64,000 nucleotides of DNA from Segatella copri (lineage in GTDB: Bacteria; Bacteroidota; Bacteroidia; Bacteroidales; Bacteroidaceae). Of this stretch, positions 15,309 to 45,988 are shown in pieces (the first letter of the stretch is position 1; each line of letters starts with the position of its first letter). Both the position numbers and the translations under genes were made by a program. The DNA is taken from assembly GCA_021615735.1 (NCBI GenBank), contig JAJWFY010000009.1:21527-85526 (forward strand). Reading direction: 5' to 3'. The notes under the pieces are model-generated. The model made no database searches, was not told the origin of the DNA, and was given only the letters and a program-made list of their open reading frames with translations.

Positions 15309-18300
15309 CTACACTTGCGTTCTGTTTCGGTATTCAGTAGGTACGATACCCGTTTCTTTCTTGAATACCTTCGAGAAATACTTAGGGTCGGTGAAACCTA
15401 CTGCGAAGGCGATGCTGCTCAGTGTATCGTCTGTCTTGCGTAACATCTCGCATGCCTTCTTGATACGTATATGGCGAACGAAGTCTACCGGTGTCATTCC
15501 GGTCGTTGCTTTCACCTTATTATATAGTACGCTTCGGCTCATACCGATTTCGTTCGAGATGTCATCAATCTTGAGTTCCGGATTGCCTGTATGGGCAACA
15601 ACAAATCTGAAGACACGCATCATGGCTCTGTCCTGAATCTGTGCCGCTATAAATGCCAGCTCGCTGTTTGGATCAACCGTTTCGTTCTCGGCACTAGTTT
15701 CAGCCTGGTTAAGAGCAGGCTGAGGAACTGCTGCAGGCAGTATTCGCAGGGCTGCTATGGCATCTTTATCGCCAGTTTCCTTCAGTTTTCTGATGACATC
15801 CATCTGAATGTTGCGGCGCTGGGTGAGGATAGCCTCTATTCTGCCGAGCAGATAAGGGGTAGAGAATGGCTTGGTGATATAGGCGTCAACTCCTTCATCA
15901 AAACCTCGCTGCTGATCTTCTACGCTTGCCTTGGCCGAGAGAATCATCACTGGGATGTTGTTGAGGGTGGTATCCTGCTTGATCTCGTGAATCATCGACA
16001 AACCATCCATCACAGGCATGGTAACGTCCGTGAGGATAAAGTCTGGTATCTCCTTGCGGACCATCACTAAACCAGCCTTTCCGTTCTCTGCAAGCAGCAC
16101 GTTATAGGTAGGCGAGAGGATACTGTAGAGGAACTTGCGCAGGTCGGCATTGTCTTCTACTACCAGTATCGTCTGGTCTTTGAGTTCCGCTTCTTCCTGT
16201 GCTTCTTTCTGTTCCTTGCCCATTTCTTCCAGTCGTTCAGCCTTTTCATCCTTTTCTTCTTTCTGTTTGTTGGTTTCTTCCAGATAGTCAGATGCATTGT
16301 GGTCGTCAATCTGGCCATTCGCTTTTTCTCTTTCTGCCAGGTCGTAATCTTCTTCGGTCAGACCGCTGTTCGTATGGAAGTCTGCATTGTTGCCATACCT
16401 CTGAACCTTGTCCAGTGTCATCAGCATATCGTTGGCATTGTCTACCACCATTTTCAGCAGTTCCTTGCCCTTGCGGGTGATACCCGGCTCGGTTTCCAAA
16501 ACGGTTTTTACCGGGGCTCCGATGAGCGTTAATGGGGTTCTCAGGCGGTTGGCTGCATCGCTGTAGAATTCGTTCTTCAGCATGCTCATTTCGTGGCTTA
16601 CGTTCTCGCGCTGGCGCTGGTTGTAGGTATAGAAGATGGCACCTACGATACCGATGAGCAGGAGCAGCATGAGAAACTTGCCCCAGATGCTCTCCCAGAA
16701 GGTAGGGCGCACTTCGATAGGCAGTTCTGCTACATATTTGCTCCATACGCCATGAGAGTTGGTGGCTCTCACTTTGAGTACATAGTTGCCATGGCTGATA
16801 CGGTTAAAGCCGATGACATTGCTGCTTCCGTTCGAAATCCACTCGCCCGGAGCGGTATAACCATCGATGCGATAGAGGTATTGGGTCTGATACTTGCGTT
16901 CATAGTCGAGCGAAGCAAAGGTGATGGTCAGGTTTCGCTTATTGGCTGGAATCACCACTTTTTCCTTGTGCAGGATAGGCTCCGACTCTTTCTCTCCGCT
17001 ATAGTTGAGGGAACTGAAGACGACCTTAGGCTGGTAGTTACTCTTCTTCAGCGTAGCCGGATTGAAGGTAATCAGTCCCATAGGGGTACCTACCGAGATG
17101 TTGTTGCTTGCCGGGTCGTGGTATGGGCGGCTGTTCGAGAACGACATGTTGAAGTCGAAATCGTTAGGTCCGAACACGTTGCACTTGCCCGTTTTCGGGT
17201 CTACGCAGTCGATGCTCGATTCTCTGATCACCCAGATTCTTCCCTGGTTGTCTTCTACCATGCCCTGTACGATGCCTTCGTTTATATTGATGGGATGGAA
17301 GTATTTCATCTTCAGGTTGTCTTGCAGGAGCGATTTGTTCACAATCTCTTCCATCACACCGCCCTGTTGCGAGATATACATCTTTCCGCTGGTATGCTCC
17401 ATGATGTTGTTCACATCGTTTGCTGCCAGACTTGTGGTATCGTTCGGTATGTAGTAGGTCTTGTGATAATTGATTTTCCTTGCGTTTGTAAAGGCATCAC
17501 TGAAGGTGATGAGACCGTCTGTAGTTCCTACAAGAATGGTTCCCGTAGTGGTGCAGCAGATGCGGCGTACGCGGTCGTAGTGCTGCTTCTCCCAAGGCAG
17601 TCCGTTTCGTTTACTGATGAAGCTGATACTGCCGTCTGCTGCCTCATTTACCAGGGCGATACCGCCACCATAGGTACCTATCCAGATGCGTCCGGTGCGG
17701 TCGGCTACGATGTCGAATACCTTGTCGAATGGCAGTGAAGCGGGGTCGTTTGCATCGTAGGTAAAGTGCCTTACCTGCATCTTGTCTATCAGATAAATAC
17801 CGTTACCGTTGGTTCCAATCCATGCTCTTCCCTTGATATCGAAGTAGATGGAGAAGATGCCCTTTTCGGCGAAGTTTACCTGTTGTGGCACGATTTGTCC
17901 GCTTGGCGAAAGGTAACCGATGCTCTGGTAGGATGCGTTGAGTACCTGGATTACTCCATTGTGATAGCCTGTCCAGATATGTCCGTCTGGTGATGCATTT
18001 ACCGAGAACACTTCGTCTTCGCCCACATCCAGCTTGTTGATAATGTAAGGGTGATATTTGAAGACTACCTGTGTCAGGTCGTGAGAGCCTGTCAGCCAGA
18101 GGATTCCCTGGTCAGAGAGTACATATTTCGTAATCTTCGGTATGCGGTAGTTGCCCGATGAGTTGCTTCTGAGCAGATAAGGCACCAGTTTTCCTGCCTT
18201 GCGGTCAAAATAACTGAAGGTTCCTCCTCTTGGCACTACCCAGAGGGTCTTGTTTTCGTCTTGTGTGATGAAATTGCTTTCGCAGGTTGTGCGGTCCATC

Positions 18301-19307
18301 GGGTCGTCCTGATCGGCAAAGAGCCACTGCTTCTGTCCGGTCTTCGGGTTGATGAGGGTTACTCCCATACCGTCTGTAAATGCCCATACCATACCGAAAT
18401 CATCGGTATAAATCTTCTTTACCTCTTCCAGAGGCTGACTCGGGCTCTGTACGTTGATGATATCAAACTTGAAGGTGCGCGGGTTGTAGATAATCACACC
18501 CAGATTGGTTGCCAGCAGGAGTTGGTAACCTGTATTTTTCAGTTGGTTGATACGGGTTACGCCTTCTGGCATTGGTATCATGGTGAGTCGGTTCTGCAGG
18601 TCATATTTTGCCAGTTTACCGTCTTCAGTTGCCAGGAACTCATCTTCTCCCACCCCTCTGAGCCATTTGAAAGGCAGCTGGCTTGGGAATTTCGAATTGT
18701 ATACGTATGCGCCTTTGTCGGTAAGCACCCATTCTCTTCCGTGTATATCTTGATGGATGTACCATACATTTCCGCTTCTGAGTCCCTTTTCTCCTACTTT
18801 GATGAGTTCTATGTTAAGCTTGTCATAAGAATCTCCTGTTGTTCTAACAGTTATTCCATTTTCAGCTGTAATCCATGTAGTCCCGTTCTTCAATGGGTAT
18901 ACCCGGTTCACACGCAGGTCTATATTGAACATTTCGTTTATTCTTTTTCCCAATTGTCTAAACTGGCATAAATGGGTATCGTATACGTAGAGCTGCTGGT
19001 CGTATGTGATACACCATACGTTGTTGGTGTAGGATGGTTCTATTTTCAGTATACGGTTGGTTGACAGGACGTCAATATCATCCGGGTTGTCTCTGAAAGT
19101 ATGAAACTGGTAGCCGTCATAGAACGACAGTCCGTTCCATGTACTGAACCACATGAGGTTGTCTTTACCTTGTTTCAGGTCTGAGATGGTATTGGCAGCG
19201 AGTCCGTCTGTGATAGAGAATTTCCTCACATCGCAGTAGGGTACAGCTGCTGTCATGATGGTAGAGAGCAGTCCTAATAGGGTGATATATAATTTTCTTT
19301 TCATCAT
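15309..19307 (-). CDS. Hybrid two-component-system-like regulator: periplasmic beta-propeller/Y_Y_Y sensor, TM, degenerate HisKA, REC and AraC HTH, with no HATPase domain
   Basis: 1332 aa. The N-terminus has repeated propeller blades (W..T..GL..YD type). The TM segment is FLMLLLLIGIVGAIFYTY. The HisKA-like helix is FYSDAANRLRTPLTLI. An acidic K/E linker follows. The REC domain has ILVVEDNAD..ILTDVTMPVMDG..ILSAKAS..YITKPF. The HTH_AraC region has IAFAVGFTDPKYFSKVFKK. Confidence 0.9.
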   Translation of the reverse strand: MMKRKLYITLLGLLSTIMTAAVPYCDVRKFSITDGLAANTISDLKQGKDNLMWFSTWNGLSFYDGYQFHTFRDNPDDIDVLSTNRILKIEPSYTNNVWCITYDQQLYVYDTHLCQFRQLGKRINEMFNIDLRVNRVYPLKNGTTWITAENGITVRTTGDSYDKLNIELIKVGEKGLRSGNVWYIHQDIHGREWVLTDKGAYVYNSKFPSQLPFKWLRGVGEDEFLATEDGKLAKYDLQNRLTMIPMPEGVTRINQLKNTGYQLLLATNLGVIIYNPRTFKFDIINVQSPSQPLEEVKKIYTDDFGMVWAFTDGMGVTLINPKTGQKQWLFADQDDPMDRTTCESNFITQDENKTLWVVPRGGTFSYFDRKAGKLVPYLLRSNSSGNYRIPKITKYVLSDQGILWLTGSHDLTQVVFKYHPYIINKLDVGEDEVFSVNASPDGHIWTGYHNGVIQVLNASYQSIGYLSPSGQIVPQQVNFAEKGIFSIYFDIKGRAWIGTNGNGIYLIDKMQVRHFTYDANDPASLPFDKVFDIVADRTGRIWIGTYGGGIALVNEAADGSISFISKRNGLPWEKQHYDRVRRICCTTTGTILVGTTDGLITFSDAFTNARKINYHKTYYIPNDTTSLAANDVNNIMEHTSGKMYISQQGGVMEEIVNKSLLQDNLKMKYFHPININEGIVQGMVEDNQGRIWVIRESSIDCVDPKTGKCNVFGPNDFDFNMSFSNSRPYHDPASNNISVGTPMGLITFNPATLKKSNYQPKVVFSSLNYSGEKESEPILHKEKVVIPANKRNLTITFASLDYERKYQTQYLYRIDGYTAPGEWISNGSSNVIGFNRISHGNYVLKVRATNSHGVWSKYVAELPIEVRPTFWESIWGKFLMLLLLIGIVGAIFYTYNQRQRENVSHEMSMLKNEFYSDAANRLRTPLTLIGAPVKTVLETEPGITRKGKELLKMVVDNANDMLMTLDKVQRYGNNADFHTNSGLTEEDYDLAEREKANGQIDDHNASDYLEETNKQKEEKDEKAERLEEMGKEQKEAQEEAELKDQTILVVEDNADLRKFLYSILSPTYNVLLAENGKAGLVMVRKEIPDFILTDVTMPVMDGLSMIHEIKQDTTLNNIPVMILSAKASVEDQQRGFDEGVDAYITKPFSTPYLLGRIEAILTQRRNIQMDVIRKLKETGDKDAIAALRILPAAVPQPALNQAETSAENETVDPNSELAFIAAQIQDRAMMRVFRFVVAHTGNPELKIDDISNEIGMSRSVLYNKVKATTGMTPVDFVRHIRIKKACEMLRKTDDTLSSIAFAVGFTDPKYFSKVFKKETGIVPTEYRNRTQV

Positions 19308-19540: not shown

Positions 19541-20728
19541 TTACTTCTGAATCATCTTCTTTCCGTTCTTGATGACTACACCCTTGTAAGCCTTGGTTAC
19601 CTTCTGGCCTGCGAGGTTGTAAACAGGAGCGTTCTTTGCAGCTTCGTCTGCTGTAATGTTAGTGATGCCGGTAGTTGATGCTGTAGGAGCTACAGTAGGA
19701 GCGAGTTCTAACTTGGTATTGAATGGAATGATGATACCTGTATAGTCCATTGCAGTCTCCGTATTAGGTTTGTAACCAAGTTTGAACTTGTCGAAAATCT
19801 GCATTGTCTTTTCGGCATCTGTGTAATAGTTTGTGTATTCGCCTTCTACTGCCTTTACGAGAGTAACATCTTTGATAGTAACAAGTTTGCATGCATTTTC
19901 CTGTTTTGCAGCCTCTTCTACCGTCATTTCGAAAGGCTTGACAATACCATCTGTAACTTTGATGTCTGAAGCAGCAATGTTAACTAACTCTGGAAGTTTT
20001 TTAAATTCATCATAAGAAGCCTCAATTGTTCCATTGAGAATTTGACCTGCTTTATAAGACAGAGAACTCTGGTAGATGTCTATACCACCAGTCTCATCAA
20101 CGATATAGATGTCGCCAGTGCCTATATATTGTACCTGTGCATTCTTTAAAGTCAAAATAGCTTTATTGCCGACACCAATAGCTTTAAATGCAGCAATGTT
20201 ATCTACCTTCTTTGTTTCTATAGGTTTGGCAGAACCCTTTTTCCAGATCAGAATTTTTTGGATTTGGTCATTGTTGGCATTTGTAACTTTGATGGTATAT
20301 ACCGTATTGGCAGCCTGGTTGTCTGCAGCAATTTCGTACTGGTGTGTACCTTTAGCACCTGTTGTTTGTGTACTGACAGCTTTATTACCAACAAAAATGT
20401 TTCTGGTAGTTTTACTAGATCCTCCAGCAGGGCTGATAATATCAATTCTTTCTACATCAAAGTCAAACTTAGGAAGGTTGATATATGCGTCCTTTTTTCC
20501 ATAGATGATGGCATTGTTTGATGCAAGATAGTATGCTTTTTCCGGTGCACTGACCGTAATGGTATACGTGCCATTGGTGAAATCTGTTGCATTGGTAATG
20601 CCTTGTTCTTTAGAGGCTGGCAGTTTCCAATTGTTTCCTGCAAAGTCAAAAGTTACTTCCTGTGCAAACGTAACGCTAGCTACGAACGCCAGAACCAATG
20701 ATAATGAATAGCGTAAAAATTTGTTCAT
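19541..20728 (-). CDS. Secreted protein with a T9SS C-terminal sorting domain and an OB-fold-like module
   Basis: The signal peptide is MNKFLRYSLSLVLAFVASVTFAQE. The C-terminus, PVYNLAGQKVTKAYKGVVIKNGKKMIQK, has the pattern of a type A Por-secretion tail. The middle segment, VQYIGTGDIYIVDETGGIDIYQSS..GQILNGTIEASYDEFKKLPEL, resembles the OB modules appended to extracellular nucleases. Confidence 0.75.
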   Translation of the reverse strand: MNKFLRYSLSLVLAFVASVTFAQEVTFDFAGNNWKLPASKEQGITNATDFTNGTYTITVSAPEKAYYLASNNAIIYGKKDAYINLPKFDFDVERIDIISPAGGSSKTTRNIFVGNKAVSTQTTGAKGTHQYEIAADNQAANTVYTIKVTNANNDQIQKILIWKKGSAKPIETKKVDNIAAFKAIGVGNKAILTLKNAQVQYIGTGDIYIVDETGGIDIYQSSLSYKAGQILNGTIEASYDEFKKLPELVNIAASDIKVTDGIVKPFEMTVEEAAKQENACKLVTIKDVTLVKAVEGEYTNYYTDAEKTMQIFDKFKLGYKPNTETAMDYTGIIIPFNTKLELAPTVAPTASTTGITNITADEAAKNAPVYNLAGQKVTKAYKGVVIKNGKKMIQK

Positions 20729-22131: not shown

Positions 22132-23175
22132 TTAAAACCCCAGATTCTTGATGATTTCTGCATCTACGTTTTCCACTTCCTTCTCGATTCCATCAGGGAG
22201 ATTACAGAAGAAGTCGATGCCGGTTTTGTCTTCCAGCGTCTTGATGTTTACGATATGGTTGCCGAGCTTATCGCCCTTTTCAAATGCCTTGTTCTCGTGA
22301 GGGAACCAGTAGCCGAAAGCACTGTATTTGTGCTTGTTACTTTCCGTATCAAACGCTTTTTCCAATATTGCTACAAAGAAATACTTTGGTACTGGGATGT
22401 AACCTGTTGTTGCAGTATAGACCGTTTGTCTTCCGTTGATATATTCAATAATGTTTTCAGGACTGTCTATAGTACCGCCTTTTACAACAAATAGAGTATC
22501 CTTGTCATTTATTATAGCATTGGCTTTTTTCCTCAAGGCGTTCTCCATTTGTATCCATGTTCCGTTCTGGTTGAATTTGGCATATTGTGGTTGCATGTTG
22601 GTCAGAAAGTCTGTCTGTCTTTCCTGGGTACTGTTTAATCTTCTGTCGCCTGATGGGCAGATGTGTCCATGATCATATCTTCCATTGCCTTTATATGGAT
22701 CATAAGTGAAGTCTACCACTCCATATAGAGACTTTAAATCTGTATCAGATGGATAATCATCTTTAGGTCTACTAACAATGTTTTTATTGTTTCCTGTATG
22801 GAAAGTATAGCAACTCCATCTCTGGCTCTTCATGTTGTCGTCCCATTCTGTAGAATAGTTCAACATACCTGTGGTTTTATCTATGTGAACGATGGCATAG
22901 CTGGTACCATTGTTCTTGAGTTTTGGGAACTCCAGACCGCCGATAGCGTTTCTTACCACTTGTGGCATGTTGGCAGTAACCACATTCTTGTTTGTATTGT
23001 TCTTATCGGTTGACTCACCACCGGTATTGCCACCTGTGCTTCCACCACCCGTATTATCGCCACCGGTAGTACCACCGTTTTCGGGATAATAGAACTGCAG
23101 CGAATCATCAGTACCGCAGGCAGAGAAGGTCATCGCAGCTACGAGTGCGAAGATAAAAAACTTAGTATGCTTCAT
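22132..23175 (-). CDS. DNA/RNA non-specific endonuclease (Serratia NucA family) lipoprotein
   Basis: The lipobox is MTFSAC, followed by a G/T-rich linker (GGTTGGDNTGGGSTGGNTGGEST). The catalytic block YDHGHICPSGDRR..FLTNMQPQ corresponds to the DRGH..N..PQ motif of beta-beta-alpha-metal nucleases. Confidence 0.85.
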   Translation of the reverse strand: MKHTKFFIFALVAAMTFSACGTDDSLQFYYPENGGTTGGDNTGGGSTGGNTGGESTDKNNTNKNVVTANMPQVVRNAIGGLEFPKLKNNGTSYAIVHIDKTTGMLNYSTEWDDNMKSQRWSCYTFHTGNNKNIVSRPKDDYPSDTDLKSLYGVVDFTYDPYKGNGRYDHGHICPSGDRRLNSTQERQTDFLTNMQPQYAKFNQNGTWIQMENALRKKANAIINDKDTLFVVKGGTIDSPENIIEYINGRQTVYTATTGYIPVPKYFFVAILEKAFDTESNKHKYSAFGYWFPHENKAFEKGDKLGNHIVNIKTLEDKTGIDFFCNLPDGIEKEVENVDAEIIKNLGF

Positions 23176-23361: not shown

Positions 23362-23613
23362 TTACTTCTTCAATTTGCCGTAACGGTTCATGAAGCGGTC
23401 TACACGACCCGCTGTATCAACGAGCTTGCTCTTACCTGTGTAGAATGGGTGAGATGTGCTAGAGATTTCAATCTTAACAACTGGATAAGTCTCGCCTTCG
23501 AACTCAACAGTGTCGTTAGTCTTGCATGTAGACTGAGAGAGGAACATATCGCCGTTAGACATATCCTTGAATACTACAGGACGATAATTCTCTGGATGAA
23601 TACCTTTTTTCAT
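23362..23613 (-). CDS. rpmE: 50S ribosomal protein L31 (type B, lacking the CxxC Zn ribbon)
   Basis: [54 protein letters not shown] is the L31 signature. The Zn-binding cysteines are absent. Confidence 0.95.
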
Positions 23614-23731: not shown

Positions 23732-23739
23732 CAAAGTTA
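23732..23739 (-). promoter_or_regulatory. -7 box for rpmE
   Basis: TAACTTTGCAG on the minus strand, 119 nt before the ATG at 23613. Confidence 0.55.
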
Positions 23740-23877
23740 CGCTTTTTTCCTGAAACCACCAAATATTTCTTCTTCTTTTTAAGAAATATTTTGGAAAAGA
23801 GCGAGTTATTCATTCATAAATTGTTTTTGAACGGATGGAAGTCAATACTTTTTGTTTTGCCACTCACCCCAGTTTTA

Positions 23878-24088
23878 CCCCACACGCCCTGAAAGGGCAG
23901 AAGCTCCTAGCCCAGGGCACCGCCCTGGGGATATTGACAGTTCGCAAGACGCCCTGTAAGGGCAAAAGCTTTAAAAACATTCGGGTTCAATGAAAGCTTT
24001 TGCCCTTACAGGGCGACAGGTTTGTGCCCGTAATTACCCAGGGCGATGCCCTGAGCTAGGAGCTTCTGCCCTTTCAGGGCGTGTGGGG
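23878..24088. repeat. 211-bp GC-rich nested palindrome (MITE/REP-like element or structured RNA)
   Basis: The outer arms 23878-23929 and 24037-24088 are complementary at 50 of 52 positions. The inner arms 23950-23972 and 23993-24015 are complementary at 23 of 23 positions. The loop is 20 nt. Each arm also has local hairpins (gccctgaaagggc, cccagggcaccgccctggg, gccctgtaagggc). Confidence 0.85.
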
Positions 24089-24125
24089 CAAATTTAGAAT
24101 GGCAATTAATTTTTCTTTTGTCATT

Positions 24126-24287
24126 TTAGCTCAAATTCATTTCACGCAAAAACTCTTTCATCATTTTGATGAACTTTGGATCCATTTTTGTCTGCCCTGG
24201 ATGAGCTTCCACCCATTCAGCTCTTTCTATGAATTTTCTTGCTTCCTCGCCGTGAAGCGTAGGAATGACTCTGATTGGTGTTGCCAT
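24126..24287 (-). CDS. Unlisted small ORF (53 aa), hypothetical
   Basis: The translation is MATPIRVIPTLHGEEARKFIERAEWVEAHPGQTKMDPKFIKMMKEFLREMNLS. It falls below the 60-aa cut-off of the ORF track. It has its own -7 box (24327-24334) 40 nt upstream and is followed by the 211-bp palindrome. The overlapping + ORF 24081..24305 looks spurious. Confidence 0.5.
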   Translation of the reverse strand: MATPIRVIPTLHGEEARKFIERAEWVEAHPGQTKMDPKFIKMMKEFLREMNLS

Positions 24288-24334: not shown

Positions 24335-24403
24335 AGAAAGTTTTCTGAAACATGCAAGGAAAGGGGGATAAATCTTTGATATTTAACAATATGGATGAAA
24401 AAA

Positions 24404-24442
24404 ATCCCCATCGCCTCGGCTTGTGTAGAGGACGATGGGGAT
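24404..24442. terminator. Bidirectional terminator after the barrel/lipoprotein operon
   Basis: 10-bp stem atccccatcg/cgatggggat, flanked by an A-run and a T7 run. Confidence 0.6.
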
Positions 24443-24480
24443 TGGTATTTTTTTCTAATACATAATATCTACTCAGGGAA

Positions 24481-25962
24481 TTACTTCAGTGTGATGATGA
24501 TCTTCTCGATGTAGAGAGCACCTTTCGTGTTGTTGCTGAGAGTAAAGTGCTTGACGTTCTGAGCGCTCAAGTCGAATGTCTCAGTGTAGGTTTTGTAATC
24601 ACCTGAAACCTCGTTGGTAGAATTGCCTTTGATAGCTGTATCCTTACCATTTGCTGCCTTTGCTGCATAGAAGGTATAGCTTGGGGCATAAGTAGAAGTT
24701 GCTTTTGTTGAGAATAGGATTGTTACGGTCTTGATCTCCTTGGCAAAGGCTGTAGCATTAAACAGGAAGCCCTGTTTGGTAGCATCAGCTGCATCACCTT
24801 GCATTTGGATACCCTTTCCATTTTTGCCTTCCGAAATGCATATTTTAGCACCTTTAAAGGTGATGTCGCCAATCTTCCAAGCGTACCAGGTTGCTTCGTC
24901 TGTAACATTCTGACTATTATAAAACTTTTCTGCAAGTTCCACAGCACCGCTCTTACCACTCAAGATAGTTGCATCTGTCATTTCAATGTTGCCGCTGGCT
25001 GGTGTATCAGGAGTCTCTGGATCTGGCTTAACCTCACCACCGCCAGTCTTACCATTAATAGAGATGAGGGTGGTGTTCTTAGTTTCAGGAGTGGTTCCCA
25101 GGTAATTAGTGAGGTTGGCACTAACCACAATTTCGTCGCCTACATTCAACTGGGTATCACCTTCTTTCCACTTTTCACCACCAAAGTAGCGAACGCTGTA
25201 TACAAGGAAAGTTGTGCTGTTTGCATCATCTGCAATGTTTACTGTAGCTGTACCATGTTCTGCGTCGAATGGGTACTTGATGCTTTGTATCTTACCCTTG
25301 ATATAATATACCTTGTCTGTAACCTTGTCAGCCTCTAATGCCTTGGCCTTGTTGTATGCAGCTACACTGTTGAATGGATTAGCTTCAGAACCATCGCCCT
25401 TAGCTTCTCCCTTGATTTCAGTATCTGTGCCTGGGGTAGTATCTCCTGGTTTCTTACCAATCTCCTTGCCGTCAATCTTAGCGTATACAGGCGACTTCAA
25501 GCCGGTAGCTCCGAAATAGCTTTCAATATTACCGCAGATGAGCAATTCTTTCTTCAGATTACCTGAGTTATCCTTCAGGTTGAGAGCTGTGCGGAGATCG
25601 CCAGCTGGCAACTGGATAGGCATACAGTTGTTAACCTCTTTCTCATCTGCCTTGGCAGCGAGGAGAAGGTTTGTAGGAGCTGTAGCAGCACTTGATGCAT
25701 CACCGAAGATAGCCTCGTTGAGCGCCTTGTCTGGTACATAACCTACGATGTAACCCTTAATATATTTGCTGGTGCCTGTCTTTACTGTCTTAGCGTCAGT
25801 CACAGTATAAGGACTGGCTTCTGTACCCTGTGTTGCCACTTCAGGAGTGGTTGGAGCACCAGGCTGAGTAGGCAGTGTGTAAGGCTCTGGTACGTCCTCA
25901 CAGCTAATGAATGTGAAGGCTGCCATAGCTGCCATCAAAACTGAAAATATATACTTTTTCAT
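24481..25962 (-). CDS. Surface lipoprotein with DUF6359-like and OB-fold-like modules (last gene of the barrel operon)
   Basis: The lipobox is FTFISC. The first module is ASPYTVTDA..YIKGYIVGYV..LLLAAKADEKEVNNCMPIQLPAGDLRTALNLKDN..ELLICGNIESYFGATGLK. The second is VYYIKGKIQSIKYPFDAEHGTATVNIADD..LVYSVRYFGG..VGDEIVVSANLTNYLGTTPE. The family call is from memory of nuclease-associated domains. Confidence 0.7.
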   Translation of the reverse strand: MKKYIFSVLMAAMAAFTFISCEDVPEPYTLPTQPGAPTTPEVATQGTEASPYTVTDAKTVKTGTSKYIKGYIVGYVPDKALNEAIFGDASSAATAPTNLLLAAKADEKEVNNCMPIQLPAGDLRTALNLKDNSGNLKKELLICGNIESYFGATGLKSPVYAKIDGKEIGKKPGDTTPGTDTEIKGEAKGDGSEANPFNSVAAYNKAKALEADKVTDKVYYIKGKIQSIKYPFDAEHGTATVNIADDANSTTFLVYSVRYFGGEKWKEGDTQLNVGDEIVVSANLTNYLGTTPETKNTTLISINGKTGGGEVKPDPETPDTPASGNIEMTDATILSGKSGAVELAEKFYNSQNVTDEATWYAWKIGDITFKGAKICISEGKNGKGIQMQGDAADATKQGFLFNATAFAKEIKTVTILFSTKATSTYAPSYTFYAAKAANGKDTAIKGNSTNEVSGDYKTYTETFDLSAQNVKHFTLSNNTKGALYIEKIIITLK

Positions 25963-26013
25963 ATTATTGTCTTTTTTAGATTATTACTATTTATATCTAT
26001 AGAAGTGAACCGG

Positions 26014-27348
26014 TTATTTTACTGCAAAATTCTTAACCTCCCAGGTTGGAGCACTCGTTGGAGTACTGCTGTAGAGGAAACCGATGTAGATGGTCTTGCC
26101 ACAATATTTCGTCAAATCTGCAGTAGATGGAACAAAGTCCCAGTTGTCTCCTGTTGGATAACCCTGTACGTCCAAGTCGGTCCATGTCTTTCCGTCTGTA
26201 GAAATCTGAACCTTACATTCCTGCTTTATATCTGAGGCAAAATTGATAGCCTGCTCGAACATGAGTTTAGCGCTCTTGGCTGATTTCAGGTCGATGGCAG
26301 GCGATTTGAGACGTGACTGGAGGTCATATTTAGTACTGTTCACATAGCCTGAAGCCTTCATTCCGTAAGCTGCTGATGCCCATTTCCAGACAAATTCTAC
26401 ACCATCAGCCAGTTTGATATTGTCGATGGTGAAATTGCCCTGGCTGGCATCAAACGGCTCGCTGAGGTAGGCTAGAACTACTGATTTCAGATCATCCGTG
26501 CTGCGAAGCACAATCTGCCAGGTATCGCCGAATCGGGTGAAGATACCGGTGATATCGAATACGCCCTGTGGAACCACCTCGTTGGCAAACTTAGAATAAC
26601 CCGAGTTGCGCACTACCAGATTGCTGCTGTTGATCTTCTTGCCGCTTTCGGCATCAATCAGTTCCAGACTCGTATTGGTATCATCTGGTGCCCATACGTT
26701 TGTACCGTTAGCTGAAGCAAACTTCACCTTCTTCAGGGTCATCAGCTTGCCCACGTTAGCATCCATATAGGCTGCATCAGTAAGCTTTGTCAGGTCAAAC
26801 TCCTCTGGCACTACCGTGCTTGCATCAGCCTCGCCAGGGTTCAGAATCTTGAAGTGCTCGTTCCAGATGGCACGCTCTATCTTGCCCATACCCAGACTTC
26901 CATCTGAGAGCTTGGTATTCACACCGCCAATCTGAGGCAACTTCTTGTAACTTCCGATATAGAGACCCTTCAGGTTTACGAGAATCTCCTGACCAACAGG
27001 AAGATAACCCGACAGGCCACTTCCGTTGATGGCAATGATGATAGCGCCGGATGCATCCTGTACGCTCACCTGGTTGTAGATATTGCCACTGACATCATTG
27101 CCCGTCACTACCGCCTTGATCATCATGTCTTTCTCAATCTGCTTGTAGCCATTGTCGCTGTTGATAACCGTAGCAAACTGGGTCTTCAAATCTGCTATGC
27201 TGATCACATTCTTCTCCCTCAGGCTGTTGTTGCCCCATGGAGATGCAGGCACCTTCTCGGTCAGGTCTGGGTCAGCATAACCGTCGCCCATACACGACCC
27301 CAGGGTTAGTGCCAGGAATGCCAATGCTATGAATTTTATCTTTTTCAT
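26014..27348 (-). CDS. Surface lipoprotein, DUF5689-like (OB-like) N-terminal half and choice-of-anchor-J-like C-terminal half
   Basis: The lipobox is LTLGSC. The N-terminal half has IKAVVTGNDVSGNIYNQVSVQDASGAIIIAINGSGLSGYLPVGQEILVNLKGLYIGSYKKLPQIGG. The C-terminal beta-sandwich ends PTWEVKNFAVK. Confidence 0.7.
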   Translation of the reverse strand: MKKIKFIALAFLALTLGSCMGDGYADPDLTEKVPASPWGNNSLREKNVISIADLKTQFATVINSDNGYKQIEKDMMIKAVVTGNDVSGNIYNQVSVQDASGAIIIAINGSGLSGYLPVGQEILVNLKGLYIGSYKKLPQIGGVNTKLSDGSLGMGKIERAIWNEHFKILNPGEADASTVVPEEFDLTKLTDAAYMDANVGKLMTLKKVKFASANGTNVWAPDDTNTSLELIDAESGKKINSSNLVVRNSGYSKFANEVVPQGVFDITGIFTRFGDTWQIVLRSTDDLKSVVLAYLSEPFDASQGNFTIDNIKLADGVEFVWKWASAAYGMKASGYVNSTKYDLQSRLKSPAIDLKSAKSAKLMFEQAINFASDIKQECKVQISTDGKTWTDLDVQGYPTGDNWDFVPSTADLTKYCGKTIYIGFLYSSTPTSAPTWEVKNFAVK

Positions 27349-27419
27349 TGTTCTTTCTTTTTATTGTTATAGAGAAACGGGATTGCTCCCTGTTCTTTAT
27401 GTTAAAGAGAAACTGCTCT

Positions 27420-30020
27420 TTAGAATCTGTAAGATACCTGGAACATGCCGTTGGTACCCCAGGTGTAATACTTCTTAGGATTCTTAGAGAACTGGTAGAG
27501 GCGTGGATTCTTCACGTTGTCGTTAGCATCCAGTGTATAGCTTGAACGTGAGTTCTGCTCATATCCGCCTGTTACGATGGTCTGGTTGTTCAGCAGGTTG
27601 GTAATCATGAGGTTGAAGTTGAGAGAACCCTTCTTCAGTCTCACGCTCTTGCCTATGCTCAGGTCAACCATCCATCCTCCGTGACCTTTCTCCTGGGCTA
27701 CAGCATCCTCAGTCCAGCTCATACCGTCGAGTGTAGTAGGAGCAAAGATTTCAGGGAATGCCTTGTAGGCATCCTGGCGGTTTTTCAGCACCTTCTCATA
27801 TCTGTAGCTTGGAGAATAAGAGAGGTAGATGCGGTCGTAGTAGTTGGCTTTGAGGTTGACGAACCATCCGTTTACGTGGGCATCGAGACCGATGCTTCCC
27901 ACTGTGAGCGGTGTGCCACTCTCACGCATATCCATCACGTAAGCCTTGTCACGGTAAACCTCAGCACTCTTTGAGAGCATGTATACGGCGTTTACATTGT
28001 TGATGTTCTTCGCCTCGCTCATAGCGCCCAGGGTCTTCAGGTCGAGCCATGATGTGAGCTTGAACTTAGCGCCCACCTCTACACCATAGTATTCCTTTTT
28101 CAGTCCGGTCATGCTCACGTAGGTGAATGAGTTCTCATCATCGTTGTAGAAGTTCTGCCATTCGGTAACGTTCTCCAACCGGCTGTAGTAACCGCTCACG
28201 TTGGCGCTCAGCCATGCGTTGCGGTACATGTAGCTGAATTCAGAGCTGAAGATGCGCTCGTTCTTGAGGTTTGTCACGAAGTCGTTGCTGATTTCTGGTG
28301 CGATGAAGGCTGTGTTTGCCATCGGTGCACGCAGTTCGTAACCGGCTCCTATGCTGAAGGCATGGCCTCTGCCCATATCCACGTTCAGGCTTCCCTTTAC
28401 GCCACCGTCCAGGAAGTTGGCTGTGCCGCTCTTGCCCTGGCTGTTGTTAGGTGCCATACCGTTGCGCATATAGCCTCGGCGGTTCATGCCGGTATATCCG
28501 ATACGTCCGCTCAGCATCGCCTTCATGTTGTAGAATTCGGCTGTATAGGTGCTCCATGCGTTTGCCTTGTTCACGTCGATGCGATAGTCGTAACCGAACT
28601 TGTCGCCCTCGTAAACCAGCTTGCCTGTGTTGTTTGGACCGGCTGTGTTCAGGTCGTACTGCACACGTGGGTCGGTCTTAGGATAATCGCCCAGGGCATA
28701 GGTGTTGATGTTGTGGAAGATGGCACCGCCCAGCATGTCTTCCAGAGTCTGATAGTGCTGGTTGGTACTCTTTCCGAGCATGATACCCGTAGCCAGGTTC
28801 GATTTCTTGGTCAGCTTGGTGTTCAGAACGGATGAGAGACTCAGGGTCAGGTTGTCGTTGTGCTTAGCCTGAACATAGTAGAGCAGATCCTGTCCGTTCT
28901 TGGCTGCCTGCTGGTTGGCATAGTACAGACGGTCCCAGTTAATCTGTCGGTTCAGCTTGCTTGCCTGCCAGTAGTTTACGGCGTTGTTCCAGTTTTCCCA
29001 GGTATACATGTTGTTGCCGTTCTTGTAGTCGCCCCATACATAGTAGTTGGCAGATGGCATGTTCTTCCAGTAGTCTGGCTGCGGATTCTCTGCGTTGTTG
29101 TAGTTGAGTTTGGTGCTCTTGTACATAGAGTATTTTCCGAACACCGATGTGGTGAGCTTCATCTGGTCGTTGATATCCCAGTCCCATGTAGCGATAGCCG
29201 AAGGTGCAAAGTCGTTCACTACGCGTGAGTTTCTCTTGTGTCCGTTCTGGTATCCCCAGTATGGGTTATACTGGTAGTCGTTCGCCAGCCAGTAAGCCTC
29301 GTCGGTAGATGCGCCCTGGGTGCTTCTTTCTGTCGGGTTACCCCATGTAGAGAAGCTCAGCGAGTGGCCATTCATCCACTTCTTCTGCACGCCGAAGAAA
29401 TAGGAGAGGGCGTTGTAGATGGTTCCCTCTACGTATCCCTGGTTAGCCCAGCGGTAGGTGAGACCGGCTGTTATCGCCCATCCCTTCTCGTTGAATCCGC
29501 TGGAGTAGGAGTAGAGTCCGCGCAGGGTATAGTTGCGGTTGGCAACACCTACGCTTGCATACTGTCCTTCCTGCATGCTTCCGGCACGGAAATCATAGTT
29601 GTTGGAGCCTGCCATGCCCGTCATCGAATAGCCATTGGCTTCGAAAGGCAGGGCGAAGTCTACGTTCCTGGAGAATCGGTTCAATCCACCGATGTTGGAG
29701 AAACGGAACTGTCCGGTCTCCATATCGTTCATGGAAGCACCATTGATATAGACATCGTTGTACTTCTGGTTGAAGGCACGGTAGCGGAAACGTGCTGGCG
29801 AGAACAGGTAACCTGCCTGGCTCGCGTATACGTTGCTGGTAGAATTGAGGATGGTGACATTGGATGACATGTCATCGTCCTCGCCCAACTGTGCCTCGGA
29901 GAAGGTGAAAGCATTCTCGTCAAGTCCCTGTGCTACGTTCTGGTCAGTCTTTTCGTTCTGAGCCATAGCTAATGAACACGAGAAGAGCGCTAACATTGCT
30001 AAGTTTACTTTCTTCTGCAT
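27420..30020 (-). CDS. TonB-dependent-receptor-like outer-membrane beta-barrel (not SusC-type, no adjacent SusD)
   Basis: 866 aa with a signal peptide. The plug-like segment is FRYRAFNQKYNDVYINGASMNDMETGQFRFSNIGGLN. The barrel is aromatic-rich and ends in the C-terminal motif QVSYRF. Confidence 0.75.
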   Translation of the reverse strand: MQKKVNLAMLALFSCSLAMAQNEKTDQNVAQGLDENAFTFSEAQLGEDDDMSSNVTILNSTSNVYASQAGYLFSPARFRYRAFNQKYNDVYINGASMNDMETGQFRFSNIGGLNRFSRNVDFALPFEANGYSMTGMAGSNNYDFRAGSMQEGQYASVGVANRNYTLRGLYSYSSGFNEKGWAITAGLTYRWANQGYVEGTIYNALSYFFGVQKKWMNGHSLSFSTWGNPTERSTQGASTDEAYWLANDYQYNPYWGYQNGHKRNSRVVNDFAPSAIATWDWDINDQMKLTTSVFGKYSMYKSTKLNYNNAENPQPDYWKNMPSANYYVWGDYKNGNNMYTWENWNNAVNYWQASKLNRQINWDRLYYANQQAAKNGQDLLYYVQAKHNDNLTLSLSSVLNTKLTKKSNLATGIMLGKSTNQHYQTLEDMLGGAIFHNINTYALGDYPKTDPRVQYDLNTAGPNNTGKLVYEGDKFGYDYRIDVNKANAWSTYTAEFYNMKAMLSGRIGYTGMNRRGYMRNGMAPNNSQGKSGTANFLDGGVKGSLNVDMGRGHAFSIGAGYELRAPMANTAFIAPEISNDFVTNLKNERIFSSEFSYMYRNAWLSANVSGYYSRLENVTEWQNFYNDDENSFTYVSMTGLKKEYYGVEVGAKFKLTSWLDLKTLGAMSEAKNINNVNAVYMLSKSAEVYRDKAYVMDMRESGTPLTVGSIGLDAHVNGWFVNLKANYYDRIYLSYSPSYRYEKVLKNRQDAYKAFPEIFAPTTLDGMSWTEDAVAQEKGHGGWMVDLSIGKSVRLKKGSLNFNLMITNLLNNQTIVTGGYEQNSRSSYTLDANDNVKNPRLYQFSKNPKKYYTWGTNGMFQVSYRF

Positions 30021-30186
30021 AGTTTATATGTTTTAAATATTAATAGATCGGCAACAGTGATTTCTTTGAGCAGTGATGATATATTTATAGTCCCGTTGGA
30101 TTTTGTTTAGGTAAACTGTAAGGGGGACTTATCATGGTTTCTGGTCTTGTGTCTTCTGTCCCGATCAAAAATAATTATTAGTGCTG

Positions 30187-30194
30187 CAAAGTAA
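30187..30194 (-). promoter_or_regulatory. Near-consensus -7 box for the barrel/lipoprotein operon
   Basis: TTACTTTGCAGC on the minus strand, one nucleotide off TAnnTTTG, 167 nt before the ATG at 30020. Confidence 0.45.
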
Positions 30195-30289
30195 CAAAAT
30201 TATTTTTAAAAAGAGAAGTTATTTATGTTAAAAATGCATGAAAACTGAAAAAATATTCGTTTTTATGGAGATATTTCCGGTTTTTTAGG

Positions 30290-30297
30290 TATCTTTG
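30290..30297 (+). promoter_or_regulatory. -7 box for the EEP nuclease/UDG/udk operon
   Basis: TATCTTTGCT, 68 nt before the ATG at 30365. It is divergent from the barrel-operon promoter. Confidence 0.6.
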
Positions 30298-30364
30298 CTG
30301 CGTATTTCCTTATGAATTTAAGAAATACATATATAATAAGGTATACATTAATAATTAATATTGT

Positions 30365-31435
30365 ATGAGAAAACAATTGCTCTTGCTGGCTGCCCTCCTC
30401 ATGATAGGGCTGGGCGCTACAGCACAGAAAAAGAAGTCGCAGACTTCAGGCAACAGGCAGTTTCAAGTGTATGCTGTAGGTTTCTACAATCAGGAGAACC
30501 TCTTCGATACCTGTCATGATGCCGGTAAGAATGATTATGAGTATCTCCCTGCTAAGGGATGGAATGGTATGAAATATACCAATAAACTCAAGAATATGTC
30601 GCGTGCACTTGCCGACATGGGTACCGATGTGCTGCCTAACGTGGGCTGTGCCTTCATCGGTCTGTCTGAGGTTGAAAATGCCAACGTGCTGAAGGATCTC
30701 ACCGCACAGCCGCCTCTCAAGGCAAGAAACATGCAGTTCTGCCATATCGAGGGTCCCGATAAGCGAGGCATCGATTGTGCGCTGCTCTATAATCCGGCAC
30801 TCTTCACGGTGAAGAACACCCGATTGGTGCCTTACGTACAGGAACTCGCCAAGGATTCAGCCTACAAGACCCGTGGTTTCCTCACTGTTCGCGGTGAACT
30901 GGCGGGCGAGGATGTGGCGGTTATCGTATGCCACTGGCCAAGCCGTTTCTCCGTTTCGTTCTATCGCGAGAGCGGAGCACGCCAGACTAAGGCTGTAAAA
31001 GACAGTTTGCTGAAATTGAACCCGACGATGAAGGTGTTCGTGATGGGTGATATGAACGATGATCCTACCAATGCCAGTATGCACAAGGTGCTGAAGGCGA
31101 AGGCTGAAATCAGCGAGGTGGGTGCCGATGATATGTACAACCCATGGTATAACATCCTGGCCAAGGAGGGCAAGGGAACCCTGTTCTACAGCGGTTCGTG
31201 GAATCTCTTCGACCAGATAGTCATCACGCCTAATCTCCTGAACAAGGATAGTAAGCATAAGGACTACAGTTCTCTGAAGTTCTGGAAGAACCACATCTTC
31301 CGCCGCGATTACCTCATCCAGCAGGAAGGTCAGTACAAGGGTGCTCCTTTGCGTACCAAGGCAGGCGGCAGATGGCTTAACGGCTACAGCGATCACCTGC
31401 CGGTAGTGATGTACCTGGTGAAGGAAAAGAAGTAG
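30365..31435 (+). CDS. Secreted endonuclease/exonuclease/phosphatase (EEP) family nuclease
   Basis: The signal peptide is LLLAALLMIGLGATAQ. EEP motifs are present: VGFYNQENLFD, GLSEVEN, MGDMNDDP and GYSDHLPV. Confidence 0.85.
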   Translation: MRKQLLLLAALLMIGLGATAQKKKSQTSGNRQFQVYAVGFYNQENLFDTCHDAGKNDYEYLPAKGWNGMKYTNKLKNMSRALADMGTDVLPNVGCAFIGLSEVENANVLKDLTAQPPLKARNMQFCHIEGPDKRGIDCALLYNPALFTVKNTRLVPYVQELAKDSAYKTRGFLTVRGELAGEDVAVIVCHWPSRFSVSFYRESGARQTKAVKDSLLKLNPTMKVFVMGDMNDDPTNASMHKVLKAKAEISEVGADDMYNPWYNILAKEGKGTLFYSGSWNLFDQIVITPNLLNKDSKHKDYSSLKFWKNHIFRRDYLIQQEGQYKGAPLRTKAGGRWLNGYSDHLPVVMYLVKEKK

Positions 31436-31437
31436 AA

Positions 31438-32007
31438 ATGGTTGAAAATCATCCTTTTGAGCCGTGGCTGCCCGAGAATGCGCGGCTGCTGATGCTCGGC
31501 ACGTTTCCGCCTGCAGAGAAGCGGTGGTGCATGCCCTGGTATTATCCCAACTTCCAGAATGATATGTGGAGGATATTCGGGATTATCTACTTCCAGGATA
31601 AGTTCCATTTCGTGGATGTAGAGAAGAAGACCTACCGCCTCGATGCTATTAAGAAATTTCTCGGGGAGAAGGGCGTCGCCATTTATGATACCGCACAGCA
31701 GGTGATACGCACCAAGAATACGGCATCCGATAAGGATCTGCAGATCGTGCAGCCCGCCAATCTCGACGGCATGCTCCGCCAGCTGCCCCATTGCAGGGCG
31801 GTGCTCACAGCCGGCCAGCTTGCCACGAAGGTATTTTCAGAACACTTCGGCATCAAGGAAAAGCCTGAGATGGGAGGTTATGCAGAATTCCAGTTCGAGG
31901 GCCGCAGACTCCGTCTGTACCGCATGCCCTCCAGTTCCCGTGCCTATCCTATGGCAGTGGAGAAGAAGGCTGAATTCTACCGCAAGATGTTTGATGAAAT
32001 CTTATAG
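31438..32007 (+). CDS. Uracil-DNA glycosylase superfamily protein (family-6 / deoxyinosine glycosylase-like)
   Basis: LLMLGTFPPAEKRWCMPWYYPNFQNDMWRIFG resembles the ILGSxP...YY....N.FW signature. The gene starts 3 nt after the EEP stop codon. Confidence 0.65.
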   Translation: MVENHPFEPWLPENARLLMLGTFPPAEKRWCMPWYYPNFQNDMWRIFGIIYFQDKFHFVDVEKKTYRLDAIKKFLGEKGVAIYDTAQQVIRTKNTASDKDLQIVQPANLDGMLRQLPHCRAVLTAGQLATKVFSEHFGIKEKPEMGGYAEFQFEGRRLRLYRMPSSSRAYPMAVEKKAEFYRKMFDEIL

Positions 32008-32021
32008 AAAGAAGAAAGAAT

Positions 32022-32645
32022 ATGAAAGATAAAGTGACCGTTATTGGCATTGCGGGAGGTACAGGCTCCGGCAAGACTACTGTGGTGAAGAAACTCGTAG
32101 AAGTGCTGCCGCCTCATTATGTGGCTGTGGTGCCCCTCGATTCATATTATAACGATACCTCGCAGATGACCGAGGAAGAACGTCATCAGATCAACTTCGA
32201 CCACCCGTCGGCATTCGATTGGAAGCTTTTGCACCAGCAGCTCGCTGATCTGCGTGCTGGCAAGGCGATAGAGCAACCCACCTATAGTTATATCAAATGC
32301 AACCGTGAACCGGAAACGGTTCACGTTGACCCCAAACCGGTTGTGATTATCGAAGGTATCATGACGCTGGTGGACAAGAAGTTGAGAGACCTGATGGACC
32401 TGAAGGTGTTCGTGGATACCGATGCTGATGAGCGCCTGATACGCAACATTCAGCGTGATACCATCGACAGGGGTCGCACCGTATCGATGGTGGTAGACCG
32501 ATACCTCAAGGTCCTGAAGCCGATGCACGAGCAGTTTATCGAACCCACCAAGCGCTATGCTGACATCATCATTCCGCAGGGTGGCGAAAACCTCAAGGGC
32601 ATCGGTATCCTCTGCAAGTATGTAGAGGGACTGATAGAGAAATAA
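32022..32645 (+). CDS. udk: Uridine kinase
   Basis: VIGIAGGTGSGKTT is the P-loop. NFDHPSAFDW, EQPTYSY, IIEGI and DTDADERLIRNIQRDTIDRGR follow. Confidence 0.93.
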   Translation: MKDKVTVIGIAGGTGSGKTTVVKKLVEVLPPHYVAVVPLDSYYNDTSQMTEEERHQINFDHPSAFDWKLLHQQLADLRAGKAIEQPTYSYIKCNREPETVHVDPKPVVIIEGIMTLVDKKLRDLMDLKVFVDTDADERLIRNIQRDTIDRGRTVSMVVDRYLKVLKPMHEQFIEPTKRYADIIIPQGGENLKGIGILCKYVEGLIEK

Positions 32646-32706: not shown

Positions 32707-32738
32707 GGGCGGGCTTCTTCGCAAGAAGAGGTCCGTCC
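32707..32738. terminator. GC-rich hairpin between convergent udk and the 429-aa gene
   Basis: gggcgggcttctt-cgca-agaagaggtccgtcc gives about a 13-bp stem including G-U pairs. Confidence 0.5.
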
Positions 32739-45795: not shown

Positions 45796-45822
45796 ACTAA
45801 AACTGATTTTGTTATTTCGGGG

Positions 45823-45830
45823 CAAAGTTA
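45823..45830 (-). promoter_or_regulatory. -7 box for the DUF308-PBP1A-helicase operon
   Basis: TAACTTTGCC on the minus strand, 28 nt before the ATG at 45795. I see no box in front of PBP1A or the helicase. Confidence 0.55.
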
Positions 45831-45874
45831 CGAAAGAAATCCGAAACTAGCAAGAAGTTTTTTATATAAACTTA

Positions 45875-45927
45875 AATTATTGCTATATTTAACGCTAATT
45901 ATTGCTATATTTAACGCTAATTATTTG
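45875..45927 (+). repeat. 22-bp tandem repeat x2 plus a partial unit
   Basis: AATTATTGCTATATTTAACGCT x2, then AATTATTTG. Confidence 0.85.
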
Positions 45928-45947
45928 TTGGTCTCGATAGAAAGCCG

Positions 45948-45955: not shown

Positions 45956-45988
45956 TAAGCAAAATCAGAATCATGATGTCTTGGAAAG

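Follow-up and report, generated by a model that had tools for sequence, protein, structure and literature searches.

A probable ddb-type nucleic-acid utilization locus in a Segatella copri-complex bacterium

We analysed 64,000 nucleotides of a Segatella copri contig (JAJWFY010000009.1 of assembly GCA_021615735.1; this whole stretch is hereafter called the window). In it, a minus-strand operon for an outer-membrane barrel protein and two lipoproteins lies back to back with a plus-strand operon for an EEP-family nuclease, a protein resembling uracil-DNA glycosylases (UDG-like), and uridine kinase (udk). An earlier reading made from the letters of the DNA (the sequence-only reading) had interpreted these six genes as a locus for the capture and uptake of extracellular nucleic acids, laid out like a polysaccharide utilization locus (PUL), and had named no characterised Bacteroidales system of this composition. 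The last point is out of date, since the ddbABCDEF and BT3560-3563 loci of Bacteroides thetaiotaomicron have been published. We consider it likely that the locus is the Segatella/Prevotella version of the known DNA-utilization (ddb-type) locus of Bacteroidales, and not a new kind of system.

The ddbABCDEF genes encode three nucleases, the TonB-dependent-type protein DdbC, the DUF5689 protein DdbD, and DdbE, a protein with a signal peptidase II (SPII) signal (Sharan et al., PNAS 2025; PMC12478041). They are needed for the depletion of exogenous DNA and for the production of uracil and xanthine, both in vitro and in mice, and ddb loci, which are PUL-like and fall into four subtypes, are related to transformation genes of Riemerella (PMC12478041). 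The BT3560-3563 genes encode a TonB-dependent transporter (TBDT), a hypothetical protein, and two lipoprotein nucleases, with a synteny that is kept in Prevotella and Alloprevotella (Béchon et al., PNAS 2022; PMC8851478). Natural transformation in Riemerella requires both a barrel protein and a DUF5689 lipoprotein (Huang et al. 2021; PMC8459023). In Prevotella intermedia, the nucleases NucA (EEP) and NucD (Endonuclease_NS, PF01223) digest DNA and RNA (Doke et al. 2017; PMC5516193).

Our listing of open reading frames (ORFs) reproduced all six genes at the positions and on the strands given earlier (Table 1), and the families that had been recognised by eye (DUF6359, DUF5689, EEP, and uridine kinase) were borne out by Pfam and NCBIfam. 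Two distances were corrected: the control region shared by the divergent operons measures 344 bp instead of about 270 bp, and 2 nt instead of 3 nt separate the EEP gene from the UDG-like gene; the 14-nt spacing between the UDG-like gene and udk was right. The genes named do lie in the locus, whose extent had been drawn too narrowly, as the gene for an Endonuclease_NS lipoprotein was overlooked. The absence of a SusD-like gene was confirmed, and no protein of the locus matched SusC/RagA or SusD-like models in Pfam or NCBIfam.

Table 1. Positions of the locus genes and of other features in the window (aa, amino acid residues; a domain row gives residue numbers)
Feature	Position	Strand	Size	Source or remark
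Barrel gene	27420-30020	-	866 aa	ORF listing
DUF5689 lipoprotein gene	26014-27348	-	444 aa	ORF listing
DUF6359 lipoprotein gene	24481-25962	-	493 aa	ORF listing
Domains of the DUF6359 lipoprotein	DUF6359, ~45-170; OB-like, ~185-305; variable beta-sandwich, ~325-493			
EEP nuclease gene	30365-31435	+	356 aa	ORF listing
UDG-like gene	31438-32007	+	189 aa	ORF listing
udk	32022-32645	+	207 aa	ORF listing
Endonuclease_NS lipoprotein gene	22132-23175	-		Pfam
rpmE (ribosomal protein L31)	23362-23613	-		Pfam
Divergent control region	30021-30364		344 bp	AT-rich, with candidate Bacteroidetes-type -7 boxes (TAnnTTTG)
Candidate TAnnTTTG boxes	30290-30297; 30195-30202 and 30166-30173	+; -		Motif scan
Hairpin with T-run	24397-24455	-		Inverted repeat I3, directly behind the lipoprotein stop codon
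Terminator-like hairpin with T-rich tail	32707-32738	+	14 pairs	Ends the EEP-UDG-udk operon
Promoter-like box of rpmE	23732-23739			
Nested palindrome	23874-24092		~220 nt	GC-rich
Small ORF	24126-24287	-	53 aa	
Box of the small ORF	24327-24334			
Gene for a secreted protein	19541-20728	-	395 aa	
Hybrid two-component regulator gene	15309-19307	-	1332 aa	
DUF308 and histidine-phosphatase genes	45145-46584			

The barrel protein has a signal peptidase I (SPI) signal peptide. As a single sequence it matched nothing in Pfam, NCBIfam, or the PDB, and a profile of 25 barrel sequences also found no match in the PDB; some sources label its homologs 'TonB-dependent receptor'. An AlphaFold2 model based on 51 homologs (mean predicted local distance difference test score (pLDDT) 75, predicted template modelling score 0.77) contains about 22 long strands. 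With this model, Foldseek returned 206 PDB matches at E <= 0.001 (best E 3.7e-20, probability 1.0), and the 50 listed matches are all TBDTs (Fiu, FecA, FhuA, PqqU, and others). By this modelling the fold is established as a divergent TBDT type, as the sequence-only reading had claimed. A plug domain and a TonB box are probable. Pfam Plug matched residues 51-110 weakly (E 0.15 for the window protein; 25 of 51 homologs, best E 0.005), TonB_dep_Rec_b-barrel was weakly matched in 5 of the 51, and the stretch at residues 37-47 (AFTFSEAQLGE), with an acidic run after it, is a candidate TonB box, a comparable hydrophobic-then-acidic pattern being found in distant homologs. The N-terminal 140 residues are strongly conserved but poorly modelled. 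Loci of this sort are easily overlooked when genomes are annotated, as the transporter family escapes all the standard models of sequence (Pfam, NCBIfam, PDB).

Many distant relatives of the barrel carry a carboxypeptidase-regulatory-like (CarboxypepD_reg) domain after the signal peptide, and this N-terminal domain is missing from the window barrel. Among close relatives its presence is polymorphic: a barrel 84% identical to ours (P0004, L004:1577-4492) has such a domain of about 105 aa inserted right behind the signal peptide, and most Prevotella homologs are without it.

The gene that starts 71 nt downstream of the barrel gene encodes a lipoprotein with DUF5689 at residues 47-286 (Pfam E 6.7e-67) and a C-terminal choice-of-anchor J domain at residues 296-442 (choice_anch_J, E 5e-11). 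It scored 43 bits with NF038128 (cutoff 30), aligned over its full length with NF052645 at 99 bits (cutoff 475), and matched the profile of the Riemerella-named family M949_1556 at positions 36-456 of 457 with E 2e-28, under the cutoff. Its homologs in Prevotella mostly reach only about 285 aa. A DUF5689 profile gave no match in the PDB. For DdbD of B. thetaiotaomicron, an interface with DdbC was modelled by AlphaFold3, and a resemblance to the HIN DNA-binding domain of p202 was described (PMC12478041). By analogy with DdbD, the DUF5689 lipoprotein is predicted to be the substrate-binding partner or lid of the barrel, and a functional stand-in for SusD.

That both smaller proteins of the minus-strand operon are lipoproteins, as had been proposed, agrees with a lipobox cysteine that is invariant in the homologs of each (C21 across 31 homologs of one, and C19 across 27 of the other). 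Of the two lipoproteins, the one of 493 aa contains DUF6359 (Pfam E 2.7e-33), and its AlphaFold2 model (pLDDT 80) has three well-folded domains (Table 1). The reading of this protein as an OB-type (oligonucleotide/oligosaccharide-binding) lipoprotein was supported. The model contains an OB fold, and Foldseek matched it to the N-terminal anticodon-binding OB fold of lysyl-tRNA synthetase over about 118 columns (rmsd, root-mean-square deviation, 3.3-4 A; probability 1.0), with E only ~2e-3 and the matching domain of the query not pinned down. Homologs of the protein also matched the Pfam families tRNA_anti-codon and tRNA_anti_2.

The sequence-only reading had further seen one module in both lipoproteins. 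We found no sequence similarity between them with BLASTP (E > 0.8), and hhalign gave a probability of <10% for DUF5689 against DUF6359; the likeness is at best one of fold. Two higher hhalign values were rejected as artefacts: 99% for domain 1 against domain 2 within the DUF6359 protein fell to 19% after row filtering, and 93% between the C-terminus of the DUF5689 protein and domain 2 of the DUF6359 protein fell to <1%. The rows behind both were misaligned or recombinant (P0198, P0202) or came from long fusion proteins. That the two families are functionally linked is shown by their natural fusion in one remote locus (L086, described below), where DUF5689 (1e-53) and DUF6359 (5e-39) occur in a single 751-aa protein. 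Among homologs of the DUF6359 lipoprotein (P0194-P0240, including P0198 and P0202), some from S. copri-like strains join the N-terminal 63% of the protein (82-95% identical) to an unrelated C-terminus of the CBM_4_9 type, and in two homologs domain 1 is swapped for a second tRNA_anti-like OB domain. Such sequences suggest that the domains of this surface-exposed protein have been shuffled.

The C-terminal domains of the lipoproteins gave weak F5/8-type-C matches in Pfam, and weaker Foldseek matches of the DUF6359 lipoprotein were to beta-sandwiches of carbohydrate-binding modules (CBMs) and of Eph ligand-binding domains (E > 0.01). Together with the CBM_4_9 strain variants, these beta-sandwich or CBM-like C-termini would suit an unusual glycan- or protein-utilization locus, with lipoproteins that bind carbohydrates and nucleases that are coincidental neighbours. 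This explanation is highly improbable for a locus in which Pfam found no glycoside hydrolase, SusD, or sulfatase, whose nuclease neighbours are kept across barrel identities of 38-87%, and whose lipoproteins begin with domains of nuclease-associated families (DUF5689, and DUF6359 or OB).

Two nucleases are encoded beside the barrel and the lipoproteins. The EEP nuclease (Exo_endo_phos_3, Pfam E 4e-88) has an SPI-type signal peptide. The sequence-only reading had called it secreted, whereas the ddb model places such a nuclease in the periplasm. By analogy, it is probably the periplasmic counterpart of the SPI nuclease DdbB and of P. intermedia NucA; a ddbB-like gene also adjoins the Riemerella genes (PMC12478041). 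The Endonuclease_NS protein (DRGH-type, here DHGH; Pfam E 9.5e-32) has a lipoprotein signal, C-GT-DD, that fits the acidic export pattern C(x/xx)(D/E)(D/E) defined in PMC12478041. It is likely to be a surface or vesicle-borne DNA/RNA endonuclease and corresponds to DdbA/DdbF and to P. intermedia NucD. The locus thus resembles ddb loci in having exported nucleases with both SPI and SPII signals, and in having its DUF5689 (DdbD) gene directly beside the barrel gene.

We compared 84 related loci from different species by tblastn with the window proteins. Eighty of them are the best 80 from one genome scan (barrel identity 38-87%; Prevotella, Segatella, Hoylesella, Paraprevotella, Alloprevotella, Palleniella, and metagenome-assembled genomes of Bacteroidaceae), and the other 4 are contig look-ups; the counts take in only loci with enough flanking sequence. 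DUF5689 lies immediately downstream of the barrel in 78 of 79 loci, and a DUF6359-like lipoprotein is next in line in 52/76. In 67 of 78 loci the EEP gene lies divergently upstream of the barrel, even where barrel identity is as low as 38%, and the gap has a median of about 218 bp; the P. nigrescens locus is one in which it does not adjoin the barrel. Further downstream of the barrel operon, an Endonuclease_NS gene occurs in 48/66 loci, and rpmE stands between the lipoprotein and endonuclease genes in 38/68. The nuclease genes are therefore kept as neighbours of the barrel in related genomes, a point on which the sequence-only reading had made itself depend, and the arrangement is beyond chance because it recurs in 84 loci of different species. 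Two remote loci outside these counts have the same core with different nucleases. The order is EEP, barrel, DUF5689, a CBM_4_9 protein, and Endonuclease_NS in one (L085), and DeoC, EEP, a barrel with an N-terminal domain, the DUF5689-DUF6359 fusion, and Endonuclease_1 in the other (L086).

The two genes behind the EEP gene are of another kind. The UDG-like protein is without a signal peptide. It matched TIGR04274, the model for family 6 (DNA-deoxyinosine glycosylase), at E 1e-12 with 48.4 bits against a curated cutoff of 80, so under the equivalog threshold. A profile of 12 homologs found PDB entry 2L3F (E 2e-5), Pfam UDG was matched in 1 of the 12, and a 77%-identical homolog bears the JGI name 'G:T/U-mismatch repair DNA glycosylase'. 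Of the earlier assignment to the UDG superfamily, a weak relation is left, without membership of the curated family: the protein is related, probably cytoplasmic, and closest to the family 6 hypoxanthine-DNA glycosylases. The assignment of udk is firm (263 bits with TIGR00235, whose curated cutoff is 220, and 285 bits with NF004018, whose cutoff is 180, E 4e-85). A protein-cluster look-up grouped the 189-aa UDG-like protein at 90% with uridine kinases of 207 aa, probably through an artefact of clustering or because the collection contains a read-through or fused gene call.

In close loci (barrel >=52% identical), the UDG-like gene follows the EEP gene in 33/42 and udk follows in 33/40, with median gaps in the 33 loci of 38 nt from EEP to UDG-like and 29 nt from UDG-like to udk. 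In distant loci (barrel <52% identical) the numbers are 0/30 and 1/28. Because of this distribution, we regard the nucleases as core components, and the UDG-like gene and udk as an attachment of the Prevotella/Segatella lineage. The two genes had been taken for parts of the locus, but they are not parts of its core. The conserved EEP/UDG-like/udk operon is the sole element without an earlier description, as far as the searched literature shows.

A more far-reaching proposal is that Prevotella and Segatella hold a fifth ddb type, in which the gene for a periplasmic nuclease is hard-wired with those for a cytoplasmic, family-6-like glycosylase for deaminated bases and for uridine kinase. We consider this proposal rather unlikely. 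If it were true, and both enzymes acted on material that had been imported, the 'downstream' pathway, whose steps were left unidentified in the B. thetaiotaomicron study (PMC12478041), would have in them its first genetically linked enzymes. The glycosylase would free hypoxanthine, xanthine, or uracil from imported oligonucleotides, or would shield the genome against deaminated nucleotides that had been misincorporated. Uridine and cytidine derived from RNA would be trapped by the kinase, and the substrate of the system would be extended from DNA to RNA.

In other Prevotella, DUF308 and histidine-phosphatase genes adjoin udk (L001:6198-7448 and L003:5323-6629). In the window they lie about 12.5 kb from udk, and their displacement implies that DNA was inserted or rearranged downstream of the udk operon (32.7-45.1 kb).

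The hairpin directly behind the DUF6359 lipoprotein gene is a probable terminator of the barrel-DUF5689-DUF6359 operon. Scans for sigma-70 promoters and terminators were at chance level overall, and only the hairpins behind udk and behind the lipoprotein gene were used. The TAnnTTTG scan of the window gave 57 matches against 38 expected, so single sites are only candidates. No Rfam family was found across the whole window. Between the DUF6359 lipoprotein gene and rpmE (Ribosomal_L31, Pfam E 1.5e-27), which has its own TAACTTTG promoter-like box, lies a gap of 867 bp with a 53-aa ORF and a 220-nt nested palindrome. Because the terminator, this gap, and rpmE with its own box intervene, the Endonuclease_NS gene shares synteny with the barrel operon here but is probably transcribed apart from it.

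The same interval showed several further features. The housekeeping gene rpmE is embedded between the lipoprotein and endonuclease genes in 31/41 close loci, for no apparent functional reason. The palindrome, with outer arms of 56 nt (95% complementary) and inner arms of 23 nt (100%), occurs once in the window, where related Prevotella loci span no more than about 110-150 bp at that position; it may be a MITE-like (miniature inverted-repeat transposable element) insertion. The 53-aa ORF begins with MATPIRVIPTLHGEEARKFIE, has its own TATCTTTG box, and belongs to no Pfam family; an identical protein is found on about 1000 contigs under the name 'hypothetical protein [Segatella copri]'.

Taken with the published experiments, these observations point to the function that the sequence-only reading had proposed: its PUL-like nucleic-acid locus matches what was found for the homologous loci of B. 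thetaiotaomicron (PMC12478041, PMC8851478) and Riemerella (PMC8459023). For those homologous loci, nuclease activity has been shown, as has the need for the locus in DNA depletion and for the barrel and DUF5689 proteins in DNA uptake, and by analogy these findings may apply here. We infer the localisation of the proteins, the order of the steps, the size of the substrate, and the dependence on TonB as follows. The Endonuclease_NS lipoprotein, on the surface or on vesicles, would cut extracellular DNA, and probably RNA, to fragments. The OB-fold lipoprotein and the DUF5689 lipoprotein would bind the fragments, the latter sitting on the barrel as SusD does on SusC. The TonB-dependent-type barrel would carry oligonucleotides into the periplasm, where the SPI EEP nuclease would trim them to nucleotides and nucleosides, which would then be taken up and salvaged. 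In Prevotella and Segatella, the glycosylase and the uridine kinase might plausibly handle the salvaged material, in that uridine and cytidine would be phosphorylated and deaminated bases removed.

The barrel/DUF5689 pair could instead serve as the outer-membrane DNA-uptake step of natural transformation, the nucleases making or processing transforming DNA and not food. The homologous genes are essential for transformation in Riemerella (PMC8459023), where tonB mutants reduce it (PMC8383284), and the DUF5689 protein of the window, unlike most Prevotella homologs, keeps the full Riemerella-type architecture of DUF5689 with choice-of-anchor J. Such a role is quite unlikely in our view, as the non-specific nucleases that crowd the locus would destroy incoming DNA; ComEC, DprA, and ComF were not found in the 64-kb window, a weak point because they could lie elsewhere in the genome. 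A mainly extracellular role, in which the nucleases remodel extracellular DNA of biofilms or degrade host DNA traps while the barrel and lipoproteins are accessory or import other things, would accord with the degradation of neutrophil extracellular traps by P. intermedia NucA and NucD (PMC5516193). As the main role of the locus it is very unlikely: the barrel/DUF5689 pair is the most conserved part, above any nuclease, and deletion of ddb abolished nucleobase production from DNA and not from nucleosides, which argues for import (PMC12478041). Extracellular and import roles are not mutually exclusive.

We therefore return to the assignment of this region, from a bacterium of the Segatella copri complex, to the ddb-type loci of nucleic-acid utilization; we hold this assignment to be quite probable. 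Several points weigh against it. The tie to B. thetaiotaomicron DdbA-F and to the Riemerella proteins rests on shared Pfam families, on architecture, and on the statements of the papers. For the barrel, neither the plug nor the TonB box is resolved with confidence (pLDDT is <50 in much of the stretch of residues 1-140; Plug E 0.005-0.15), and the OB fold of DUF5689 is taken by analogy from the published DdbD model. Co-regulation of the endonuclease gene is not evident, since a terminator, a small ORF, a palindrome, and rpmE stand between it and the barrel operon. The UDG-like gene is missing from all distant loci and udk, a housekeeping gene, from nearly all, and the adjacency may be mere synteny. 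Finally, DNA is poor as the only supply of carbon, nitrogen, or phosphorus in B. thetaiotaomicron (PMC12478041), and 'utilization' may not mean a growth substrate.

Further along the minus strand, about 3 kb beyond the Endonuclease_NS gene, lies a gene for a hybrid two-component regulator with Reg_prop, Y_Y_Y, receiver, and AraC helix-turn-helix domains, typical of PUL regulators. The 395-aa protein encoded between the two was considered as a member of the locus and rejected, being not conserved beside related loci. It is secreted, with a weak C-terminal sorting tail of type A of the type IX secretion system. Its stretch 'GDIYIVDETGGIDIY...KAGQIL' resembles the first OB-like region of DUF5689, and BLASTP and hhalign gave no significant similarity to DUF5689.

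Segatella copri ranks among the human gut's most abundant bacteria, and how it deals with nucleic acids of dietary, host, and microbial origin has been unstudied. Given a ddb-type locus, the prediction is that S. copri removes extracellular DNA and RNA and adds to the nucleobase pools of the gut, as was shown for B. thetaiotaomicron. The barrel/DUF5689 pair, the two nuclease families, and the lineage-specific glycosylase-kinase operon offer handles for experiments. The basic discovery is already published; the value of the present analysis is its extension to a member of the Prevotellaceae type.

Compared with PULs of the SusC/SusD type, the locus has the same combination of an outer-membrane TBDT with a surface lipoprotein partner, further surface binders, and surface and periplasmic hydrolases. 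It differs in being without a SusD-like protein, in a barrel that is unmatched by SusC/RagA or other TBDT sequence models, and in that the enzymes of the locus are all nucleases. With P. intermedia NucA and NucD (PMC5516193) it shares the two nuclease families, at similar sizes. NucA and NucD, which were shown to be Mg2+/Ca2+-dependent DNases and RNases, were studied as isolated virulence factors without a transporter context. The Riemerella anatipestifer pair RA0C_RS04915/RA0C_RS04920 (PMC8459023) likewise consists of a barrel adjoining a DUF5689 and choice-of-anchor J lipoprotein, with a ddbB-like nuclease as neighbour (PMC12478041). The Riemerella barrel carries the carboxypeptidase-regulatory-like domain, which the window barrel is without, and the demonstrated role of the pair is DNA uptake for transformation, whereas no competence is known for Segatella.

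The closest likeness is to the ddb locus of B. thetaiotaomicron. Both have a TonB-dependent-type barrel with a DUF5689 protein next in order, a further surface protein of the SPII kind, a nuclease with an SPI signal next to the barrel, and one or more SPII lipoprotein nucleases, in a PUL-like logic without SusD. The window differs in that its barrel is without the N-terminal carboxypeptidase-regulatory-like domain, in that its lipoprotein nuclease is an Endonuclease_NS protein encoded behind rpmE and a terminator, and in that its third lipoprotein is a stand-alone DUF6359/OB protein. Its EEP gene is divergent and in an operon with the UDG-like gene and udk, and PMC12478041 describes no such operon. 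Subtypes of ddb were assigned there by BLASTP identity of >50% and coverage of >75% to the DdbC of Bt1 (WP_008762511.1), Bt2 (WP_055220680.1), Pv1 (WP_005843284.1), or Pv2 (WP_117829583.1). Because the closest cluster representatives outside its 57% Prevotella-like cluster are <=45% identical to the window barrel, the barrel probably falls under this threshold, and the locus would then stand beside the four ddb subtypes as a relative from Prevotella and Segatella.

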